NCBI GenBank assembly: GCA_963749495.1 | Contig: CAVVMW010000005.1 | Location: forward strand, 288,001-352,000 | DNA: 64,000 nt | Direction: 5' to 3' | Source of the DNA: an uncultured bacterium | GTDB lineage: Bacteria; Verrucomicrobiota; Verrucomicrobiia; Limisphaerales; UBA8199 | Part shown: in pieces, positions 34,040 through 41,787 of the stretch | Position numbering within the stretch: the stretch's first letter is position 1 | Layout: each line of letters starts with the position of its first letter | The notes under the pieces: model-generated | What the model was told of the DNA's origin: nothing | Database searches by the model: none | What the model saw: the letters and a program-made list of their open reading frames with translations, nothing else | Program-made: the position numbers and the translations under genes

Positions 34040-34336
34040 AACGGTAGGCAGGCGGATCTGGCCGCGAACGGTCCGCACCGCTTCGTCCTGGTCACGAATC
34101 GGCAGCGTGATCCACTCCTCCCAGGTCACCGGGCGGACCTTGGAAGTGCGGAGTGCAGAGTGCGGAGTGCGGAATGAATCGAACTCCAGATCGGGTAGAT
34201 CTTCGCGCTCGATTTCCAGGCCGGTGGCCACGTTGGTGGCCATCATGCAGAACGCCTCTTGAGGCGTGCGCACGTTGATGGCCTGCCAGTTGCGGTTCAG
34301 CACCAGCACGGTCGCTTTTGTCAATGTACTGCTCAT
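34040..34336 (-). pseudogene. HNH endonuclease (McrA-like), N-terminal half, last gene of the tRNA operon
   Basis: VLVLNRNWQAINV...WEEWITLP...IRLPTV; HNH core absent; heptamer insertion in frame. Confidence 0.7.
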
Positions 34337-34415
34337 AAAAAGGGGTCGAGGGTCGAGTGACGAGGACCGGAAGCGCGCTGCGGCCGAGCTTCCCTCGTGG
34401 CCCTTCATCTGCCCA

Positions 34416-34433
34416 AGGTGTTTGTTCTTTGTT
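34416..34433. repeat. 18-bp inverted repeat, trailer arm
   Basis: AGGTGTTTGTTCTTTGTT, exact reverse complement of 41150-41167. Confidence 0.9.
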
Positions 34434-34483
34434 GAGGGCCTTAGCCTTTAGCCTTCAGCCTTCAGCCTTTGGCCTTTGAAGCA

Positions 34484-34558
34484 TGGCTGCCTCGCCTGGA
34501 ATTGCACCAGGTCCTTCGGTTTCAGAGACCGACGCGCTCCTGATTACACCACGAGGCC
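34484..34558 (-). tRNA. tRNA-Gln(CTG)
   Basis: TCGGT-CTCTGAA-ACCGA arm, encoded CCA. Confidence 0.85.
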
Positions 34559-34627
34559 CGCCGTCGCGCTTTGCGCTAAGGCGCGGCAAGCGATTGGCCC
34601 GCCGAGCCGTAGCCGGCAGGCGAAGGC

Positions 34628-34701
34628 TGGTCGCTCGGGAAGGTCCTGCCCCTCCGATTTCTGGGTGTAGGCCAGACGTGATGCTATTTCACCACCGAGC
34701 C
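34628..34701 (-). tRNA. tRNA-Val(TAC)
   Basis: TCTGG-CCTACAC-CCAGA; C33; CCA. Confidence 0.75.
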
Positions 34702-34811
34702 TTTCGAATGCGGAACTCGGAATGCGGAGTGCGGAGTGCCAAACGAGAACGAAGGCTGCTTGTGCGCGCGCCCCCATTCCGCACTCTGCATTCCCCACTC
34801 CGCACTGGGAA

Positions 34812-34885
34812 TGGCTGCCTCGCTTGGATTCGCACCAAGATCATCGGGGTCAAAGCCCGGCATGCTGCCGTTACACCACGAGGCA
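34812..34885 (-). tRNA. tRNA-Gln(TTG)
   Basis: TGCCTCG acceptor, CTTTGAC loop, CCA. Confidence 0.85.
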
Positions 34886-34993
34886 AGGAATCGGCCTGCC
34901 AAGCCGTAGCCCGGCACGTCACAAATGCTCGCCTCCGCACTAGCGTGCTTCGGCGCAGCAGCCCTCGCCACCCGTCGCGCGTGTGGCGAAGGC

Positions 34994-35070
34994 TGGTGGA
35001 GCCGGAGGTAGTTGCAACCTCACCAAACCCGATTAAAAGTCGGGTGCCGGTCTGCTGTGGCTTCGGATCC
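34994..35070 (-). tRNA. tRNA-Lys(TTT)
   Basis: CCCGA-CTTTTAA-TCGGG; CCA. Confidence 0.8.
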
Positions 35071-35077
35071 AGGAAAA

Positions 35078-35162
35078 TGGTGGGCGAGAGAGGATTTGCA
35101 CCTCCAAGGCTCACAGACTCTCGATCTGTGGGGTCTGCTAATTCCCTCTGAACCACTCGCCC
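35078..35162 (-). tRNA. tRNA-Leu(GAG), atypical fold
   Basis: ACAGA-TCGAGAG-TCTGT; short variable region; C33; CCA. Confidence 0.75.
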
Positions 35163-35171
35163 AAAGAAAAG

Positions 35172-35247
35172 TGGTGCTCCCGGCCGGAATCTCACCGGCA
35201 ACCTCAGCCTTCGGAGGGCCGCGCTCTGGTAATTGAGCTACAGGAGC
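35172..35247 (-). tRNA. tRNA-Arg(CCG)
   Basis: CGGCC-CTCCGAA-GGCTG; CCA. Confidence 0.85.
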
Positions 35248-35343
35248 AGTCCTAATGTGGAATTCGGAATGCGGAGTGCGGAATAAGAATGTGCACAGGG
35301 CTCTGCACACTCCGCATTCCGCACTCTACACTCACCACTTGAA

Positions 35344-35414
35344 GGGGTCTCCTGCCGGTGCTGCCCCGGCCTGGCTTGTTTACAAAACGAGCCTGCAGGC
35401 TGCCGCAAGGAGAC
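35344..35414 (-). tRNA. tRNA-Thr(TGT)-like, small D arm, no CCA
   Basis: GTCTCCT/AGGAGAC acceptor, TTTGTAA loop. Confidence 0.6.
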
Positions 35415-35452
35415 GAGATGGCCTGCCGAGCCGTAGCGCTCGGCGCGAAGGT

Positions 35453-35618
35453 TGGTCGCAATCCCCAGTGCTGCCCTGGGCACGGCTGGCTTATGAAACC
35501 GGCCTGAGCGCTAGCCCTTTCAAGTGCAAAGTGGAGAATGCAAAGTGCGGAATGCACCGGGCGCGGGCGTAGCGATGATAATTCTGCACTCCGAATTCCG
35601 CATTCTGCACTGATGGCG
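35453..35618 (-). tRNA. tRNA-Met/Ile2(CAT), interrupted by a heptamer hairpin
   Basis: TTCATAA loop, CCA; candidate 5' acceptor strand CGCCATC (35612-35618) lies beyond a roughly 90-nt hairpin. Confidence 0.55.
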
Positions 35619-35652
35619 GGTGGGTCTGCTCTTCCCCGTGAACCACGCGCCG
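35619..35652 (-). pseudogene. 5' half of a fifth atypical tRNA-Leu
   Basis: CGGCGCG-TGGTTCAC-GGG-GAAGAGCAGA-CCC matches the other Leu genes. Confidence 0.65.
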
Positions 35653-35658
35653 AGAAGA

Positions 35659-35769
35659 TGGCGTCCCTGACCGGCTTCGCTCCCGCCTTCGCTGGAAAGC
35701 TACGGCGGGGCAGGCCGGTGATCTCCTGCATGAGAGGCAGGCATTTTGTCTGGACTACACCACAGGGAC
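35659..35769 (-). tRNA. tRNA-Glu(CTC) with 33-nt insertion in the T arm
   Basis: CCTGC-CTCTCAT-GCAGG; insert 35682-35714; CCA. Confidence 0.8.
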
Positions 35770-35775
35770 TGAAAA

Positions 35776-35852
35776 TGGTGAGGGCAGGAGGCTTCGCACC
35801 CCCAACCTGATGCATGTGACGCATCCGCTCTGGCTGGCTGAGCTATGCCCTC
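35776..35852 (-). tRNA. tRNA-Val(CAC)
   Basis: GATGC-GTCACAT-GCATC; CCA. Confidence 0.85.
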
Positions 35853-35888
35853 AAAATGGCTCGCCGAGACGTAGCTCCGAGCGAAGGC

Positions 35889-35964
35889 TGGTGGGGGACG
35901 AAGAGTGCTGCCCTCTTTGCCTCTCGGATGTCAGACGAGCGCTCTCCTGGTGAGCTACGTCCCC
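35889..35964 (-). tRNA. tRNA-Val(GAC)
   Basis: CTGACAT loop, GCTC/GAGC D stem; CCA. Confidence 0.75.
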
Positions 35965-35970
35965 AACAAA

Positions 35971-36020
35971 TGGAGCGGGTGGACGGAGTCGCACCGTCGA
36001 CTCGGCCTTGGCACGGCCCT
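35971..36020 (-). pseudogene. tRNA-Gly(GCC), 3' two-thirds only
   Basis: GGCC-GTGCCAA-GGCC, T arm, CACCCGC-T-CCA; 5' part missing next to the GIY-YIG stop. Confidence 0.7.
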
Positions 36021-36030
36021 TGGAGATAAA

Positions 36031-36297
36031 CTAGCTCCCCAGGCTCTCCGCTCCGCCCCAGAAGTGTCGTTTTGCGAAGGCATGGCCGGACCCGCTCTTC
36101 AGGTATTTCTCGAAGTGCTGGGCCTGTTCAAGGGACTCGAACGCAACGTACACCTTGAGCGTCCAAGGTATGAACTTGGACGTGTGCGGACATTTACCGG
36201 CGTTATGGTCTGCCACTCGTTGACGGAGGTCTGCCGTATGACCGATGTACCTCTGGTCGCGGTGGCTCAAGCTCTGGATGACGTATGTGTAAAACAT
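36031..36297 (-). CDS. Stand-alone GIY-YIG nuclease
   Basis: YTYVIQS...YIGHT.DL..RV..HNAG...FEKYLKSGSG. Confidence 0.9.
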   Translation of the reverse strand: MFYTYVIQSLSHRDQRYIGHTADLRQRVADHNAGKCPHTSKFIPWTLKVYVAFESLEQAQHFEKYLKSGSGHAFAKRHFWGGAESLGS

Positions 36298-36680
36298 ATT
36301 GCGGCCTGCCATCCATAGCTTGGAACCCGTTCCGTGGAAAGTCCTCCTTCGCCGAGCCTACGGAGGACATCCTCCGTTTGGCCCCCTCGCCTGGCTCGGG
36401 TTCCGAGCGGAGGATGGTGTCCCCAGCCGATTAAATCCAGAACGAAGAATGCAAAGTGCAGAACGCCCCACTCCCTCGCCATTGTCGAAAACCCAAATCC
36501 ATTTTGCATTCTTCATTCTGAATTCTTCATTTCAAAGGGCGGCCTGGATTGCGGGTCCGGTTCCGCTCGCTGGGAAAGGAGGCCGTTTCCTGCTGCTTGT
36601 GCCGCCAGCGCAGGAACTTCTGAAACCGGGCAAAATTCGTTCGGAGCGAATTTTGATAGGTTTTGTCCTCGAAGAACAAA

Positions 36681-36768
36681 TGGCGGAATGCCGTGGACTT
36701 GCACCACTTGCCTGGAGGCACGCACTCGTTAGCACCGAGGCCCGGTTCGCTTGCCCGGTTGGCATTCC
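36681..36768 (-). tRNA. tRNA-Ser(GCT), 8/4 fold
   Basis: 8-bp acceptor GGAATGCC/GGCATTCC, 4-bp T stem, long variable arm, G73-CCA. Confidence 0.8.
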
Positions 36769-36808
36769 AGAAATGGCCTGCCGAGCCGAAGCTCGACAGA
36801 GCGAAGGC

Positions 36809-36892
36809 TGGTCGGCGTGGGGAGACTTGCGCTCCCAAGGCTGTTCGGGTTTGAGCCGAACCGGTCTGCTATTCCCGGTAAACCACACGCCG
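36809..36892 (-). tRNA. tRNA-Leu(CAA), atypical fold
   Basis: TTCGG-CTCAAAC-CCGAA; A73-CCA. Confidence 0.8.
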
Positions 36893-36924
36893 GCCCGCCG
36901 AGCCGTGGCCCGGGGAGCGAAGGT

Positions 36925-37010
36925 TGGTCGGCGCCCCGGGACTTGCACCCGGAAGGCTCAGCGATTTTAAGTCGCTGGGGTCTGCTGATTCCCGCTGAAG
37001 CCAGGCGCCG
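36925..37010 (-). tRNA. tRNA-Leu(TAA), atypical fold
   Basis: AGCGA-CTTAAAA-TCGCT; A73-CCA. Confidence 0.8.
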
Positions 37011-37123
37011 AGAAAATGGCCTGCCGGGTCGGAGTTCGGAGCGAGGGTCGGATGCCCGCCTACGCCTCAAAGGCAGGCTTCGGCGAGACAGTCTTCGTTC
37101 TCCGCTGCGCTCCGAACGAAGAC

Positions 37124-37207
37124 TGGTGGGCATGGAGGGACTTGCACCCCCAAGGCTGCCAGATTCTGAATCTGGACCCTCTGCTATTCGGGTTGAACCA
37201 CATGCCC
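37124..37207 (-). tRNA. tRNA-Leu(CAG), atypical fold
   Basis: CCAGA-TTCAGAA-TCTGG; A73-CCA. Confidence 0.8.
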
Positions 37208-37216
37208 AGTTGAAAT

Positions 37217-37292
37217 TGGTGCTCCCGGCAGGACTCTCACCTGCAACCGGCGGTTCGAAGCCGCCCGCTCTGATATTTTGAGCTACGGGAGC
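37217..37292 (-). tRNA. tRNA-Arg(TCG)
   Basis: GGCGG-CTTCGAA-CCGCC; CCA. Confidence 0.85.
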
Positions 37293-37378
37293 CCTCCAAA
37301 TGCAGAGTGCGGGATGCAGAGTGCAGAATGACGCCCTTCCGTTCTGCGTCCCCCATTTTGGATTATTCAGTTGAAAAT

Positions 37379-37825
37379 TGGGGCCGGTGGGGAGACTCGC
37401 ACTCCCGTGGTAACTGTTCAGGTGTTGGACCAGTGCTGGCTTCGACGCCAGCGCCGGGCCCAGCCAAGCCGTTGTCCCGGAGGGACAACCCGAGAATAGC
37501 CCGGCGCTTCAGCGCCGGGTCCGACGCCCTAAAAACCCCGCGTCCCGACAGGGACGCCTGAGGCTCAGCACCGCAAGAGGCCAGCCGATTCAGCCGTCCC
37601 TCCGGGACGGGCGGGAGATTAGACCGCTTTCCCCGGCGCTGAAGCGCCGGGCTATTTTCGGGCTGTCCCTTCGGGACAACGACGGCCCTCGAACCAGAGC
37701 GCGTCCCGAGAGGCCCCGGCGGCGATGTGGCAACCCATGTGCCGAGACCTGAACAGTTACCTCCCGTGGGACGAATTGCCCGGCAGTTTACGAAACTGCT
37801 GCTGTCGCTGCTGAGCCACGCCGGC
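37379..37825 (-). tRNA. tRNA-Thr(CGT) with long variable arm, split by a MITE
   Basis: GCAGT-TTCGTAA-ACTGC; removing 37410-37768 restores the gene. Confidence 0.75.
37410..37760. mobile_element. 351-bp MITE-like element carrying a REP-type long palindrome
   Basis: TIRs GTAACTGTTCAGGT/ACCTGAACAGTTAC; direct repeat CTCCCGTG at 37402-37409 and 37761-37768. Confidence 0.9.
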
Positions 37826-37933
37826 CTCCGAAATGCGGAATGCAGAGTGCGGAGTGCGGGATTGCACAGAGCCGTCACAACAACGCTTGTGCTCCTCATT
37901 CCGCACTCAGCACTCCGAACTCCGCACTGAAAA

Positions 37934-38007
37934 TGGTGGGTCGCCACGGTGCTGCCCCGTGCTCTGCGGTTTAAGAGACCGCTGCATCGCTGCAATGCTT
38001 GCAACCC
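37934..38007 (-). tRNA. tRNA-Lys(CTT)
   Basis: GCGGT-CTCTTAA-ACCGC; CCA. Confidence 0.85.
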
Positions 38008-38010
38008 AAC

Positions 38011-38085
38011 CGCGACACGAAGGCGGAGTTGAACCGCCGCAGCCAGATCTGTGAAGTCCTGGCCGGCACCGGTGTTCGCGTCGCG
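38011..38085 (-). ncRNA. tRNA-like RNA (11-bp closing stem, canonical T arm, no CCA)
   Basis: CGCGACGCGAA/TTCGTGTCGCG; GGCGG-TTCAACT-CCGCC. Confidence 0.55.
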
Positions 38086-38090
38086 TGAAA

Positions 38091-38165
38091 TGGAATCCCG
38101 TGTGAGAGTCGCACTCACCTGCGCGGTTTTGCAGACCGCTGCCTGGGCTGCTCGGCCAACGGGAC
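38091..38165 (-). tRNA. tRNA-Cys(GCA)
   Basis: GCGGT-CTGCAAA-ACCGC; U73-CCA. Confidence 0.85.
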
Positions 38166-38273
38166 ATCTGAATGCGGAGTGCGGAGTGCGGAGTGCAGAG
38201 TGCAGAGTGCGCAATGTCTGCGGTGCTGCCCCTCAGGCATTCCGCATTCTGCACTCCGCACTCAGCATTTGGT

Positions 38274-38700
38274 TCACGCTGCCCGCACAAAGTCCGAGAT
38301 GACGGCTGGAACGCTGGTGTCGAAACCAACCACGTCCAGCATCCCGCGGTCGTTCGGGTCGGCCAGGGTGAAGCCACTTAAATGAAGAGTTAAGAATGCA
38401 GAATGAAGAACGGAGGACGCCCTCAGCCGCCGTTGGTCTTGATTCCTCATTGTGCATTCTTCATTCTGCATTCATGTGGGCCCAGACCATCGGCAGCGAG
38501 CAATCCGTGCCGCCCATCGGGATCGCACGGACCTTCTCGATGACGCTTTCCAGGCGCATTCGGGGCGAGAGGGCGACCCGGGTAATGCCTGACTCACCGC
38601 CACCCCGCTGGCCGCCGTGACCGCTGGCGGCTGCGCTGAAGGCGATGATCTCGCACTCGGGGTCGGTTGCCGCCGTCACCAGGGCCATGGCGATGGACAA
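38274..38700 (-). pseudogene. rsr: Ro60/TROVE protein, C-terminal vWA remnant
   Basis: AMALVTAAT...MGGTDCSLPMVWA and GFTLADPNDRGMLDVVGFD; split by a heptamer hairpin, N-terminus absent. Confidence 0.8.
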
Positions 38701-38701
38701 G

Positions 38702-38821
38702 TGGCGCCGTAGGGTGGGGATCTCCTTACGGGAATCGAACCCGTCCGGAACTTGAATCCGGGCGCTCTCCCATGGCGAGCGTCCTCCCCGTGCTGGAGGA
38801 TGACCTGCGGACTTCGGCCCA
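38702..38821 (-). ncRNA. tRNA-like RNA on a long stalk (Y-RNA candidate)
   Basis: D-like GCTC..GAGC, hairpin CCGGA/TCCGG, ACGGG-TTCGATT-CCCGT; ends pair; abuts the Ro60 remnant. Confidence 0.55.
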
Positions 38822-38828
38822 TGCGAAT

Positions 38829-38936
38829 TGGTCAGGAAGCCGGGATTCGCACCCGGACCGTCCGCTTCACAGGCGGAGATGCTGTCCACCCTCCGCAGTG
38901 CTGCTACGGAGGACGGGCTGTTACACCACAATCCTG
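38829..38936 (-). tRNA. tRNA-His(GTG) with 33-nt insertion in the D loop
   Basis: TCCGC-CTGTGAA-GCGGA; insert 38884-38916; A73. Confidence 0.75.
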
Positions 38937-38941
38937 GAAAA

Positions 38942-39019
38942 TGGTGCCCCCAGGTGGACTCGCACCACGATCCTCCTGCTTCGCGGGCAGGCGTGCACAT
39001 TCTCTTACACCTTGGGGGC
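38942..39019 (-). tRNA. tRNA-Arg(GCG)
   Basis: CCTGC-CCGCGAA-GCAGG; C33; CCA. Confidence 0.8.
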
Positions 39020-39112
39020 CTTGGAAGTGCGGATTTCGGAGTGCGGAGTGCGAAATGGCTGACGATTCCGGTGCGCCTCATTCCGCATTCCGCATTCTGC
39101 ACTCTGCACTTG

Positions 39113-39191
39113 GAGCGTCCGTGGCCGGACTTGCACCGGCTATGCCCGGCTTGAAGGGCCGGCTGCTCGAGCCTGCTTTGCATTCACGGAC
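39113..39191 (-). tRNA. tRNA-Glu(TTC)
   Basis: CCGGC-CCTTCAA-GCCGG; C33; G73. Confidence 0.75.
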
Positions 39192-39323
39192 AAATTGTTC
39201 ACCGTGGAAGGCTGGAACCACGGGGATTTCTGAACTCAGAATGGAGAATGAAGAGTGCAGAATGTCGAACCCTGCTGGCTCATTCTGCACTTTGCATTCC
39301 CCACTCTGCATTTGAGAGGCGCG

Positions 39324-40467
39324 CTAACGCCGGAGCGCGCGCGTCTTGTAGGTGAGGAGCGGCCGGAAGGTGGCGATAACCGAGATGAGTCCGGCGTCCG
39401 CCAGGTCCTGGACCACGTCCTCGATGCTCTTGTAGGCGGCTGGGGCCTCTTCGTAGAGCAACTCGCGCGGCTCGCAGATGACTTGGCCCCCCAGCGGCGT
39501 TTGGGTCAACTGCTGCCGGCCAAACCGTTCGCGCATGCGCAGGCGGCTCTCACTCCGGGCCCGACCTGCGGCCGGCACCGTGGGCCAAAGACCAGGCGTG
39601 GCTGACGCCATCTCCAATGGGCTTCACGAGGTAACTGAGCGACCCGCGGGAGCCAGGGATCATCACCGGCTCCCGTTCGGCTGCCACGGCACCCTTCCGA
39701 TGCACCCAGACCGCTTCGCCAGGGCTGCCCCTCACCCCGTCCCTCTCCCCATCGGATGGGGAGAGGGTGGCCGCAAGGCCGGGTGAGGGGACGCGAGCGA
39801 TGCTGTTGTGGCAGCCGTCCCAGAGGCACTCGGCCTCCGCTCCCAGCGCCTCGACGAATCGTCGAGCGATGAGCGCCCGGTTTGTCTTGGCCCACCTCAG
39901 GGCCAAGTCATGGTCGCGGAGATAGCCCGCCGCAGCAAACGACTCGGGATCGGAGCCTTCGGCCTGATGCTCTTCCGCGTACGCCCGCAGGACCGATTCG
40001 CCCAGACCGCGCGAGCCGCTGTGGACCAGAACCACCAGTTGCTGTTTGCCCAGGCCCAACCGCCTGAATGCTGCTGCGTCCAAGACGGCCTCGACCTTCT
40101 GCAGTTCGGCGAAGTGATTGGCGCCGCCGATGGTCCCCAGCGCTTCATCGAACTCCGTGGATTCAAGCTCCGCTACGGCGAGAACCTCGCCCACATCGCC
40201 TTCCCACGGATGCTCCAGGTCAAAGCGAAGGTCGGCCCACCCGCCTACGCGCTCCGCGCTCCGGCGCGGCAGGTCTGTCTTGAACAGGGCCGTGCCGCAA
40301 CCGATGTCGCCGCCGATGAGGTGGGGATAAATGACGCCCTTGGTGACGAGGGCGGCGCCCACCGGGCTGCCCTTGCCCGGGTGCAGGTCCGGGAAACCGA
40401 CCGCCAGGCGTACACTTTCGAGTCGTGCCGCCGCATAAAGCTGGCGAACCGCTTCGCCTTCGATCAT
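39324..40467 (-). pseudogene. rtcB: RtcB-family RNA ligase (PrfH-coupled RtcB2-like), frameshifted near 39560
   Basis: PDLHPGKG, GDIGCG, NHFAE, HSGSRG, HN, HRKGA, HGAGR, EEAPAAYK, RPLLTYK. Confidence 0.85.
39729..39790. repeat. CCCTCACCCC..CCCTCTCCC palindromic element inserted in frame in rtcB
   Basis: Nested hairpin encoding PSPGLAATLSPSDGERDGVRG between the HN and HRKG motifs. Confidence 0.75.
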
Positions 40468-40585
40468 CTGCCTGCCCTCCGCAAAATGTAGAATGAAGAA
40501 TGCAGAATGAAGAATGCCCCGGATCACGCACCGCAGGGCGCGGACGGAGATTCTGCATTCTCCATTCTGCACTCTGCATTTGAAC

Positions 40586-40692
40586 TGGCTGCCAGGGTTG
40601 GACTCGCACCCGCCGTCGCTCGGAGCTATGGCGGGGCAGGCCAACACCTAACGGCTTAACAGGCCGCCGTGCTGCTTTGACACAACCTGGCA
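40586..40692 (-). tRNA. tRNA-Asn(GTT) with 32-nt insertion in the T arm
   Basis: GCGGC-CTGTTAA-GCCGT; insert 40609-40640; G73-CCA. Confidence 0.8.
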
Positions 40693-40694
40693 AT

Positions 40695-40750
40695 TGGCGC
40701 TGCCGGCAGGAGTTGCACCCGCATGAGTTCGTTTAGAAGACGAATGCCCC
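40695..40750 (-). pseudogene. tRNA-Arg(TCT), 5' end replaced by a heptamer hairpin
   Basis: TTCGT-CTTCTAA-ACGAA, T arm, CCA. Confidence 0.7.
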
Positions 40751-40859
40751 TTCCAAGTGCAGAGTGAAGAGTGCAGAGTGCGGAATGCCGCGGTCGGGAG
40801 CGAGTGGCTCCAGCCTCTGGCCATTCTGCATTCCGCACTCCGCACTCCGCATTCAAGAA

Positions 40860-40948
40860 TGGTGGGAGGTGCTGGTAACGCTCCAGTCGTCGCTTCCGAC
40901 AGTTGTTTTTGACGCCGGTTTTACGGACCGGCAGTCGGAACACCTCCC
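40860..40948 (-). tRNA. tRNA-Tyr(GTA)-like, D-armless 8/4 fold
   Basis: GGGAGGTG/CACCTCCC, GCCGGT-CCGTAAA-ACCGGC, A73-CCA. Confidence 0.7.
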
Positions 40949-41065
40949 GAGATTGGCTTGCCGCGCCGTAGCTCGAAGCCGCGCGAATGCACGCGGGCGG
41001 TACGGCCCGCCTTCGCTTCGCTACGGCGCGGCAGCCTCGCTCTCAGACTGGCTTCGAGCGGAGGC

Positions 41066-41138
41066 TGGTAGCGGGGGTGGGAGTCGCGCCCACGAAGGCT
41101 GAGGTTATGGGCCTCGCCTGAATCTCATTCTCCCCGCA
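41066..41138 (-). tRNA. tRNA-Met(CAT), initiator-like, minimal D arm
   Basis: 1:72 mismatch, GCGGGG/CCCCGC, CCCATAA loop, CCA. Confidence 0.7.
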
Positions 41139-41149
41139 GTGAAATGGCG

Positions 41150-41167
41150 AACAAAGAACAAACACCT
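41150..41167. repeat. 18-bp inverted repeat, leader arm (boxA-like on the minus strand)
   Basis: AACAAAGAACAAACACCT; complementary to 34416-34433. Confidence 0.9.
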
Positions 41168-41448
41168 CTTGCTACCTTGCGGTACCAACCCACGGTTTCA
41201 CGGTGGTTCTTTCGGTGTTTGGGGGCACACCTCCTGCGAAGCCCATTTGAATGTAGAATGAAGAGTGTAGAGTGAAGAATGCCGCACGAGCGGCTCCGGC
41301 TCTTTCGACGGGGCGCCCATTCTGCGCTCTGCATTCTGCGCTCTGCATTCGATTATGGTGACATCATCAAGACGTCGGTTTCTTTTCGTTCACAGTGCTT
41401 TGCCTTTCGTTGTCGAGTTTTGCTTCTTTCAGTGCTGCACGGGTAAAC

Positions 41449-41481
41449 AAAAAACCCTGCTTCCATTCCGGTAAGCAGGGT
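41449..41481 (-). terminator. Intrinsic terminator in the tRNA-operon leader
   Basis: ACCCTGCTT-loop-AAGCAGGGT followed by TTTTTG. Confidence 0.85.
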
Positions 41482-41502
41482 GCAAAAAGTCTTTTGGTTC
41501 GG

Positions 41503-41673
41503 TTACCTGCTTACCTTCAATCTATCCAGATTGGCTTCGGGGTTTTGTCCACGATACGCCCTGGATAGGCCGAGGCTGAACCAATAGCCTCGGCTGGACC
41601 AGCTATGACGTGTCGCCTGCGCGACCGACGTCATCGGCCAAATCGAGACTAATATGTTCATGCAAGTTTTCAT
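41503..41673 (-). CDS. Putative leader peptide (56 aa, or 52 aa from the ATG at 41661)
   Basis: MKTCMNILVSIW...LDRLKVSR*; last codons overlap the antiterminator strand 41506-41515. Confidence 0.6.
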   Translation of the reverse strand: MKTCMNILVSIWPMTSVAQATRHSWSSRGYWFSLGLSRAYRGQNPEANLDRLKVSR

Positions 41674-41787
41674 CGAACTTGGTTCATACTTATCACATGT
41701 CCCTAATCTTGTCCACTTATATCTTTAGGGTATCCTATATCTTAAATTCAAATATCTGGATAGGTTGATACATCGCTCCCCTCCGGT

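Follow-up and report, generated by a model that had tools for sequence, protein, structure and literature searches.

A dense tRNA array on one strand

The window analysed here is a 64 kb stretch of contig CAVVMW010000005.1 (positions 288,001 to 352,000) from the genome of an uncultured verrucomicrobial bacterium of the order Limisphaerales, and all coordinates without a prefix refer to it. It contains a tRNA array that spans 34041-41777, with all features on the minus strand, interspersed with protein genes and small structured RNAs. By merging homology searches, a structure scan and reading of the strand, we identified 28 tRNA-derived units in approximately 6.7 kb of this single strand. An earlier interpretation made from the letters alone (the sequence-only reading) had described 27 co-oriented tRNA genes, mostly with encoded CCA, between 34040 and 41760. 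The array and its co-orientation stand, the count differs by one unit, and the boundaries lie near the points at which homology to other arrays stops (34041 and ~41777). Of the 27 3' ends that are present, 24 encode CCA, as judged by strand reading. Seventeen units are intact with CCA, three have a damaged 3' end (Glu-TTC, Val-GAC and Thr-TGT) and eight are truncated or split (Arg-TCT, Asn, His, Thr-CGT, Gly, Glu-CTC, a Leu fragment and a second Met-type unit). The array thereby has the size of an L-array, for which PMC4758250 asks for at least 20 co-oriented tRNA genes at a minimum of 2 per kb.

Standard tRNA finders detect only 5-8 of the units. ARAGORN with default settings reports five tRNAs in the 64 kb window (Gln, Arg, Val, Arg and Cys; minus strand, 34812-38165), and the Rfam tRNA model gives 8 matches at the gathering score and 14 at E<=10. 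Relaxing ARAGORN to 85% thresholds, as the sequence-only reading had advised, raises the yield from 5 to 14 tRNAs on the minus strand, with one more on the plus strand. A structure-only scan, which requires a 7-bp acceptor stem, 5-bp T and anticodon stems and CCA and leaves the loop sequences unconstrained, finds 17 units in the window, with a cloverleaf of 7/4/5/5-bp stems and a 7-nt anticodon loop. BLAST with 752 tRNAs taken from paralogous and related arrays produces 23 clusters of matches, which all fall on the minus strand between 34484 and 40751; the rest of the window has none. A further search used R1, a covariance model that we derived from 96 array tRNAs in other genomes, unfiltered over all 64 kb. 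R1, which models short-variable-arm tRNAs only, returns 24 matches at E<=0.01, all on the minus strand within 34484-41138, and three further matches inside the array at E 0.02-0.26; its best match outside the array has E 0.084. Most units escape the standard finders because their elbow is non-canonical, with G55 in place of U55 and mostly A in place of G18.

The units are listed in the direction of the array. C4, C7, C15, C21 and C25 denote contigs of the same genome (G000) that carry sister arrays, and L numbers denote extracted array loci, with L001 being the C4 array and L002 the C7 array.

41066..41138, minus strand: tRNA-like, anticodon CAT (Met-type), CCA, odd D arm (structure scan; R1, E 1.4e-06)
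40860..40948, minus strand: tRNA-like Tyr(GTA), long variable arm, CCA (strand reading; R1, E 0.26; colinear with L026)
40695..40751, minus strand: Arg(TCT), 5' part lost at a hairpin repeat (BLAST, 54 of 77 nt of the C21 paralogue; R1)
40586..40692, minus strand: Asn(GTT), 32-nt insert in the T loop (two BLAST pieces; contigs of other samples join 40608 to 40641)
39115..39191, minus strand: Glu(TTC), 3' end CTCCA for CCA (BLAST; R1, E 2e-11; strand reading)
38942..39019, minus strand: Arg(GCG), intact, CCA (structure scan; R1)
38832..38930, minus strand: His(GTG), 33-nt D-loop insert, weakened acceptor stem (R1 at 38829-38895; compared by eye with the C4 His unit)
38091..38165, minus strand: Cys(GCA), intact (ARAGORN; structure scan; R1)
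37934..38007, minus strand: Lys(CTT), intact (structure scan; R1)
37379..37826, minus strand: Thr(CGT), T arm split by a miniature inverted-repeat transposable element (MITE) (two BLAST pieces; two R1 matches)
37217..37292, minus strand: Arg(TCG), intact, T-loop A56 with U in the D loop (ARAGORN; structure scan; R1)
37124..37207, minus strand: Leu(CAG), long D region, short variable arm (structure scan; R1)
36925..37003, minus strand: Leu(TAA) (relaxed ARAGORN; structure scan; R1)
36809..36892, minus strand: Leu(CAA) (relaxed ARAGORN; R1)
36681..36768, minus strand: Ser(GCT), long variable arm (structure scan; R1, E 0.07)
35971..36018, minus strand: Gly(GCC) without its 5' part, adjoining the GIY-YIG gene (BLAST, 48 of 74 nt; R1)
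35889..35964, minus strand: Val(GAC), one extra base before CCA (Rfam; BLAST; R1)
35776..35852, minus strand: Val(CAC), intact (ARAGORN; structure scan; R1)
35659..35769, minus strand: Glu(CTC), 33-nt T-loop insert (Rfam, 32 bits; two BLAST pieces)
35611..35655, minus strand: Leu-type 5' fragment, cut by a hairpin repeat (strand reading; direct repeat D18 shared with Leu units)
35453..35515, minus strand: second Met-type unit (CAT), 5' acceptor strand replaced by a hairpin repeat (structure scan; R1)
35344..35413, minus strand: Thr(TGT), CCA mutated to CCT (BLAST; R1; strand reading)
35172..35247, minus strand: Arg(CCG), intact (ARAGORN; structure scan; R1)
35078..35162, minus strand: Leu(GAG), C at position 33 (relaxed ARAGORN; R1)
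34994..35070, minus strand: Lys(TTT) (structure scan; R1)
34812..34885, minus strand: Gln(TTG), intact (ARAGORN; structure scan; R1)
34628..34701, minus strand: Val(TAC) (Rfam; structure scan; R1)
34484..34558, minus strand: Gln(CTG), the last unit of the array (Rfam; structure scan; R1)

Neither the unit searches nor the strand reading located a window unit for Ala, Asp, Phe, Pro, Trp or Ile, the same six isotypes that the sequence-only reading had listed as absent. The C4 array holds Asp, Pro, Ile, Phe, Ala and Trp units at syntenic places, and deletion from the window copy is therefore the simplest reading of their absence.

The array tRNAs share a remodelled elbow

The elbow of tRNA is formed by contacts between the T loop and the D loop, and among the modified positions of tRNA, U55 (present as pseudouridine 55) is said to be the most universally conserved (PMC7912444). 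By strand reading, the T loops in the window run N-G-C-R instead of T-T-C-R, and the D loops are without GG. As a set, the array units depart from the canonical U54-U55-C56 T loop and G18-G19 D loop. This systematic feature is the main oddity of the locus, and it was overlooked by the sequence-only reading, as were the six copies of the array and the large verrucomicrobial family to which it belongs.

We applied the structure-only scan to both strands of the whole genome. Inside its six arrays, all 64 units carry G55 and only 12 of 64 have a D-loop GG. Outside the arrays, a TTC T loop is found in 42 of 46 units and a D-loop GG in 43 of 46. Because the scan sets no constraint on loop sequence, this partition is unbiased. 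Canonical tRNAs for all 20 amino acids are present elsewhere in the genome, outside the arrays, which makes the arrays supernumerary.

The same elbow is found in other species. An alignment-based search with the HNH nuclease gene that ends the arrays, using one genome per species, yielded 562 confirmed relatives, of which the best 80 loci were analysed. In 68 of these loci, 665 strict cloverleaf units lie upstream of the HNH gene and co-oriented with it, as opposed to 8 units on the opposite strands of the 80 loci. Of the 665 units, 656 have G55, 8 have U55 and 1 has A55, and 664 carry a purine at position 57. Position 56 is mostly C (571 units), with A in 49 units and G in 43; a D-loop GG occurs in 87.

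For the tertiary pair between positions 19 and 56, we examined the 436 relatives' units with a clean 4-bp D stem. Units with C56 mostly have G at the 19-equivalent position (293 of 376). All 18 units with G56 have U or C there, and 17 of the 41 units with A56 have U. Among the C56 units, the 18-equivalent base is A in 281 of 376. The 19:56 pair is retained by covariation, and the G18/U55 contact is replaced by A18/G55.

Several positions read by synthetases were inspected by eye in an alignment of array tRNAs (A4). G3:U70 is present in 3/3 Ala units. Cys units have U73 in two of three cases and C73 in the third, and His units have C73. All three Gln(TTG) units have U1:A72, and G73 is found in Gln(TTG) and in 2/3 Gln(CTG) units. 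At least some synthetase identity marks are, by sequence, apparently kept in the array tRNAs.

Two departures from these patterns were seen in individual units. An initiator-like unit in the C7 array (L002:6095-6187) has a canonical TTCGAAT loop and a D-loop GG, unlike its neighbours. Leu(GAG) units of several species (the window; L001:4038-4113; L051, L021 and L065 in A4) carry C33 and not the near-universal U33; the Leu(GAG) unit has U33 in C15 and an 8-nt anticodon loop in C21.

A family of related arrays

The host assembly comprises 11.4 Mb in 31 contigs. The window locus is one of six paralogous arrays in this genome, since whole-genome ARAGORN reveals five more clusters with the same odd T loops. 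The largest is the C7 array with about 40 tightly packed units; at L002:4679-9944 (plus strand) it has nearly no spacers and no protein gene inside. HNH paralogues terminate four sister arrays, and the C4 array contains an intact RtcB of 376 aa. A PF21804 transposase gene (7.6e-79; L001:12631-14943, minus strand) lies within the leader of the C4 array and parts its 5' portion from the tRNAs. We considered this transposase as a carrier of the arrays and rejected it: the gene is an insertion that splits the leader.

The arrays have a common gene order, as the sequence-only reading had asked to be checked by synteny: leader, a small RNA that we call the 'pre' element, tRNAs, rtcB, tRNAs, Y RNA with Ro60 or SPFH, tRNAs and HNH. 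A scan of 45 open reading frames (ORFs) from 15 related loci found RtcB intact in three arrays and broken in one, Ro60 full-length in six and split in one, SPFH in five and a metallophosphatase in two. An ORF of 210-215 aa with no Pfam match follows directly after Ro60 in four loci (L007:5538-6170, L011:6701-7333, L010:4152-4799 and L020:5494-6141; plus strand) and is absent from the window. In its full form, the family has a leader with a terminator, two small structured RNAs and about 25-40 co-oriented, CCA-encoding tRNA genes for nearly all amino acids. Embedded among these is a module for RNA repair and quality control, made up of RtcB, Y-RNA-like genes, Ro60 and often SPFH and a metallophosphatase, and an HNH nuclease gene is terminal.

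Nearly all of the best 80 loci among the 562 HNH relatives bear the label Verrucomicrobia. Of 201 genomes sampled from the same order, 52 contain the array-type HNH (E<=1e-60), mostly as one copy; by genus, it is found in 42 of 119. In a phylum-wide sample, 116 of 401 genomes have an HNH match at 1e-30, and most of these are distant paralogues with 35-45% identity. By these gene counts, the array family, which is common in soil Verrucomicrobia, is widespread but patchy in one Verrucomicrobiota order. The window tRNAs are 92-96% identical to their orthologues in arrays of other species; for rtcB and the leader DNA of those same arrays the identity is 72-78%.

The 5' region

Three conserved or repeated elements precede the first tRNA.

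41449..41677, minus strand: conserved leader with a 5' conserved box, three hairpins and an intrinsic terminator at ~41449-41481 (BLAST; alignment)
41255..41357, minus strand: heptamer-palindrome hairpin (comparison of 14 5' regions; repeat families D1-D4)
41150..41244, minus strand: 'pre' element, a conserved structured RNA of 95 nt before the first tRNA (BLAST; alignment A3, n=21)

The leader is 83-88% identical to the leaders of C15, C25 and C21 and 70-77% identical to those of more than 18 other genomes (BLAST). The terminator stem and its T-run are present in 21 of 21 aligned leaders. A 10-nt stretch ~40 nt upstream is complementary to the 5' arm of the terminator and may serve as an antiterminator; across the 21 leaders, changes in either partner of this pairing are of the G-U-compatible kind. 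The arrangement fits an attenuator on sequence grounds, in line with the attenuator that the sequence-only reading had placed upstream. A promoter scan upstream of the leader gave no convincing sigma-70-type promoter, and the leader and 'pre' region (41140-41700) has no Rfam match at E<=10, riboswitches and T-boxes included.

The 'pre' element is 85-97% identical in 40 BLAST matches. Its stem P3 reads CCGC/GCGG in 21 and CCAC/GTGG in 8 of 29 sequences, with no mixed form; in hairpin P4, 30 of 31 sequences are paired throughout, and the arms are of four types. Both stems are thus supported by compensatory changes. In most arrays (C25, C21, L026, L016, L042 and others) we also observed a conserved three-stem RNA of ~65 nt between the leader and the 'pre' element. 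In the window array and its closest paralogue, C15, this RNA has given way to a hairpin repeat. The leader and the two small RNAs are candidates for new classes of regulatory RNA.

Protein genes and small RNAs within the array

The features other than tRNAs within the array body are the following.

39324..40467, minus strand: rtcB pseudogene (Pfam PF01139 in two frames)
38687..38830, minus strand: Y-RNA-like remnant with a canonical T arm (Rfam Deinococcus_Y_RNA, 21.8 bits, E 3.5, insignificant alone)
38274..38720, minus strand: Ro60 remnant, two vWA fragments with a hairpin repeat between them and no TROVE domain (Pfam PF25045)
38008..38090, minus strand: 83-nt RNA with an 11-bp closing stem, one hairpin and a canonical T arm that keeps U55, no CCA (BLAST; fold)
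36031..36312, minus strand: GIY-YIG protein gene, 93 aa (Pfam PF01541, 4.4e-12)
34041..34339, minus strand: N-terminal half of an HNH gene with an in-frame hairpin-repeat insert (alignment with four full-length paralogues)

The sequence-only reading had listed rtcB, a Ro60 remnant, two tRNA-like RNAs and two nuclease genes between the tRNAs. All are present, and rtcB and the HNH gene are broken. The rtcB matches cover profile positions 139-354 and 351-425 in different frames. The gene has a clipped start, a 20-aa insert from a palindromic repeat and a 1-nt insertion right after the HGAGR motif, which leaves the last 75 residues out of frame in an alignment with the intact RtcB of C4, L007 and L019. 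The insert is visible at 39740-39800 (minus strand) as a GC-rich palindrome that stays in frame and adds 20 residues (VPSPGLAATLSPSDGERDGV).

The Ro60 remnant covers positions 24-88 and 132-165 of the PF25045 profile; between the aligned parts, L007 has ~1.9 kb of additional DNA that is lost in the window. An intact RtcB and a Ro60 with both TROVE and vWA domains are absent from the window and present in related arrays. The Y-RNA-like remnant is homologous by BLAST to an element upstream of intact Ro60 in L010, L007 and L077. At the same position in L010, L042 and L071, whose Ro60 is intact, Deinococcus_Y_RNA scores 42-48 bits and YrlA 32-50 bits, with E down to 2.5e-08. These matches lie below the Rfam gathering scores (21.8 bits against 80 for the window, 32-50 bits against 69 or 80 for the relatives).

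The 83-nt RNA is conserved at 88-95% in 42 BLAST matches and has a fold z-score of -3.77. An identity as allo-tRNA or tRNA-Sec was rejected: the Rfam tRNA-Sec match reaches only 23 bits (E 0.66), and the RNA has no D arm and no CCA. A copy of it, together with a tRNA-like match, is found outside any array at C4:507758-508212 in the same genome, beside an odd 'Arg' call by ARAGORN.

The GIY-YIG gene is specific to the window copy. Its only counterpart elsewhere in the genome is a paralogue with 36% identity, and a colinearity comparison found none in the L007, L011 or L026 arrays. The window HNH matches its paralogues up to approximately residue 123, and the HNH domain is lost; the window ORF has no Pfam match and the C4 paralogue matches HNH_4/HNH_5. 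In a structure prediction for the HNH protein (mean predicted local distance difference test score, pLDDT, 71), the C-terminal half resembles Cas9/Gme-type HNH domains. For the N-terminal half, no structural match appeared among those listed (alignments of 57-116 columns), and these offered no hint of an RNA target. Between the last tRNA and the start of the HNH gene, a short tandem run of AAGGCTG-like heptamers is seen at 34440-34480 (minus strand).

Integrase and phage families were not found among 12 scanned ORFs and 17 flanking ORFs of at least 180 aa (14-60 kb), consistent with the sequence-only reading. The scanned flanking ORFs encode glycoside hydrolases, oxidoreductases and transporters.

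Decay of the window copy

The array holds 13-14 hairpins of tandem heptamers, which clip tRNAs, rtcB, Ro60 and HNH. By a strict definition there are 130 hairpin arms in the genome, 16 of them in the six arrays, which make up 0.3% of its DNA, and 10 in the window array. The 'paired ends' that the sequence-only reading had noted are two members of this heptamer-palindrome family, with 13 or more copies in the array, and not the termini of an element.

37409..37761, both strands: MITE with terminal inverted repeats and an 8-bp duplication (inverted repeat I23; 264 BLAST matches)

The MITE splits Thr-CGT and contains both Rfam Acido-Lenti-1 matches as well as a terminator-like hairpin. The 264 matches of its region fall in this genome and in related loci. 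The motif called 'Acido-Lenti-1 RNA' seems, in this lineage, to belong to a mobile repeat. An acidobacterial origin, guessed from the same matches, was dropped, as the related loci are nearly all from Verrucomicrobia.

A palindromic element of ~32 nt directly follows many CCA ends, and its core motif occurs 83 times in the genome; copies in spacers include 34586-34630 and 35856-35892, among others. In reverse orientation, the element lies inside the T loops of Asn (40609-40640) and Glu-CTC (35682-35714), after position 53, and inside the D loop of His (38884-38916). Contigs from other samples join exactly across all three loop inserts. Two of the three joined forms are also found in a DNA run and the third in RNA libraries only. 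The joints in both RNA and DNA contigs connect 38883 to 38917 in His(GTG) and 35681 to 35715 in Glu(CTC). An RNA-library contig spans 37943-38046, in the region of Lys(CTT), with 1 difference. Group I or II introns and spliced tRNA introns were rejected, given the lack of a match to an intron family and the joined forms in the DNA run (2/3). From these comparisons, we read the 32-33-nt inserts as insertions relative to other genomes.

The window and C15 share the HNH hairpin and the loss of the three-stem RNA, and are therefore recent duplicates; the lesion of the second Met-type unit is common to the window and the C21 copy. The lesions together indicate that the window copy is a decaying paralogue, which has lost the function of rtcB, Ro60 and HNH and of 8 of 28 units through invasion by palindromic repeats and deletions. 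We have high confidence in this decay and in the family assignment. The intact arrays are, given the decay, a better starting point for experiments.

The sequence-only reading had proposed an inducible backup tRNA set with its own repair tools, under one leader. This is partly supported: as a statement on the family it is plausible. As a statement on the window copy itself, namely a working translation-stress operon in which one leader transcript yields 27 backup tRNAs, repair enzymes and nucleases, we consider it unlikely. In its favour are an intact leader that shares 83-88% identity with the leaders of sister arrays, 17 units with CCA and a full cloverleaf, an intact GIY-YIG ORF and the precedent of stress induction in Anabaena (PMC8421152). 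Set against this, rtcB shifts frame directly behind its active-site motif and contains an insert, two vWA fragments are all that is left of Ro60, and HNH has lost its catalytic half. Of the 28 units, eight are split or truncated; units for six amino acids are absent, and the MITE in the middle of the array brings a terminator-like hairpin.

Decay also raises the question of whether the whole family is selfish, that is, junk tRNA-derived repeats spread by the HNH nuclease, with G55 as a founder mutation copied by duplication. The patchy distribution would suit such a history, as would the several copies per genome at various stages of decay and the enrichment of small repeats in the arrays, where 0.3% of the genome holds 16 of 130 strict hairpin arms. 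The tRNAs themselves make it very improbable. Units for ~39 anticodons differ widely and yet keep G55, purine 57 and a covarying 19:56 pair, and a founder effect cannot preserve a single loop base across 656 of 665 units when the stems vary on both sides. The tRNAs are also far better conserved than the neighbouring protein genes and leader, and they apparently keep at least some synthetase identity marks.

Proposed function

We favour, as the probable explanation, that the window locus is a partly degraded L-array-type paralogue of a verrucomicrobial family whose arrays hold reserve chargeable tRNAs with a remodelled elbow. The reserve function of the family, taken by itself, we put forward as a tentative proposal, short of probable. 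A family array would supply a reserve pool of chargeable tRNAs, as in Anabaena. Read-through of the leader terminator would switch the array on when translation or tRNA integrity is compromised or RNA is damaged, and RtcB together with Ro60 and the Y RNA would mend or clear damaged RNA. In the window, some 17-20 tRNAs behind the intact leader may still be made, without the repair proteins.

tRNase toxins that cut the canonical T loop exist. G55 could not be converted to pseudouridine and, together with A18, would remove the sequence seen by elbow-reading enzymes. The array tRNAs might in this way be hidden from TruB and possibly from T-loop-directed tRNases, and so survive an insult that disables the housekeeping set. 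That the A18/G55 elbow is an adaptive disguise, and the array a toxin-proof backup translation kit with a new class of leader RNA and its own Ro60/Y RNA/RtcB crew, is a speculative extension that we regard as doubtful. If true, long tRNA arrays, on whose role opinions differ, would be tied to the damage and repair of RNA.

The ribosome, RNase P and modification enzymes make contact with tRNA at the elbow. The array tRNAs could accordingly act off the ribosome, as toxin decoys, amino-acid donors or regulators, with the altered elbow excluding them from translation. Y RNAs that mimic tRNA in the same array would agree with this, and sponge and non-canonical roles have been raised for the Anabaena array (PMC8421152). 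Near-complete anticodon sets, encoded CCA and the identity marks that are apparently kept are what translation needs, and the 19:56 pair, which stacks on ribosomal elements, is kept by covariation; a role off the ribosome is therefore improbable in our view.

Several points weigh against the reserve-tRNA explanation that we prefer. The genome is by estimate 88% complete and 5.8% contaminated, so that the six copies need not share one cell line. The stem covariation in alignment A4 arises by construction, as its units were filtered for a cloverleaf, and only the loop statistics are unbiased. The high identity of the tRNAs between species could reflect recent transfer and not selection. The leader terminator may close a separate small RNA gene instead of attenuating the array, which fits equally. 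The HNH link leaves G55 unexplained, since mycobacterial arrays that carry a gene of this HNH family have canonical T loops. As to expression, two metatranscriptomic libraries hold contigs that match the leader and several tRNAs of relatives' arrays, possibly through carry-over of DNA; expression in the organism itself was not readable, as no sequencing run contained more than 9% of the sampled words.

As a large natural family, the apparently chargeable A18/G55 tRNAs that keep the 19:56 pair offer a ready-made test of the purpose of the elbow. As standard finders miss most such genes, tRNA counts for Verrucomicrobia may be too low.

Comparison with known systems

Phage tRNAs with changes in the anticodon loop escape host tRNA nucleases. 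The idea of spare tRNAs altered at a nuclease recognition site is common to these and to the disguise proposed above. Here, the change lies in the T/D-loop elbow, affects all isotypes and is chromosomal, and the nuclease is hypothetical.

In the literature searched, we found neither G55 tRNA arrays nor verrucomicrobial arrays, though the per-species array lists in the supplement of PMC8421152 might include such; the remodelled elbow, the embedded Ro60/Y RNA/RtcB module and the conserved 5' RNAs likewise had no match there. Verrucomicrobia are listed among the phyla with L-arrays in PMC8421152, none being described in the parts of that article considered here.

The array HNH is ~35% identical to HNH proteins on Nostoc, Acaryochloris, Tolypothrix and Mycobacterium plasmids and in various phages. 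On an M. avium plasmid, the HNH gene (38% identity) lies inside a 27-gene tRNA array. This kinship with array-bearing plasmids ties the window locus to the L-arrays. ARAGORN found no tRNA within 8 kb of the HNH homologue on the Acaryochloris plasmid. The arrays of Mycobacterium plasmids and phages resemble the window family in their high density and embedded gene of the same HNH family, and they lie on mobile DNA (PMC5966550, PMC12803027). Unlike the window family, almost all of the 27 tRNAs of the M. avium plasmid have GGTTCRA-type T loops and a D-loop GG, and most are without encoded CCA.

The rsr-yrlBA-rtcBA operon of Salmonella similarly places Ro60 beside tRNA-like Y RNAs and the RtcB ligase (PMC7790460, PMC4201824). 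It differs from the module described here, which sits inside a tRNA array and is reduced to remnants in the window; no RtcR or RtcA was seen in the array module.

The closest comparison is the array of Anabaena PCC 7120, which is induced by stress and in which HNH and rtcB are conserved, co-regulated and co-induced neighbours (Santamaria-Gomez et al. 2021, PMC8421152). The sequence-only reading had drawn the parallel with a cyanobacterial stress array, and the HNH identity to cyanobacterial plasmid proteins, together with the HNH and rtcB neighbours, makes it apt. There are clear differences, as far as the same article describes the Anabaena array. No remodelled elbow is mentioned in the portions used for this comparison. 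The HNH gene is upstream in Anabaena and downstream here; the embedded Ro60/Y RNA, SPFH and metallophosphatase distinguish the verrucomicrobial family; and the 5' region consists of a direct-repeat operator in Anabaena as opposed to a terminator leader and two structured RNAs. Both arrays comprise dozens of co-oriented supernumerary tRNAs, have a patchy distribution and include some pseudogene units, and in both a gene of the same HNH family is linked and rtcB is a neighbour (PMC8421152).

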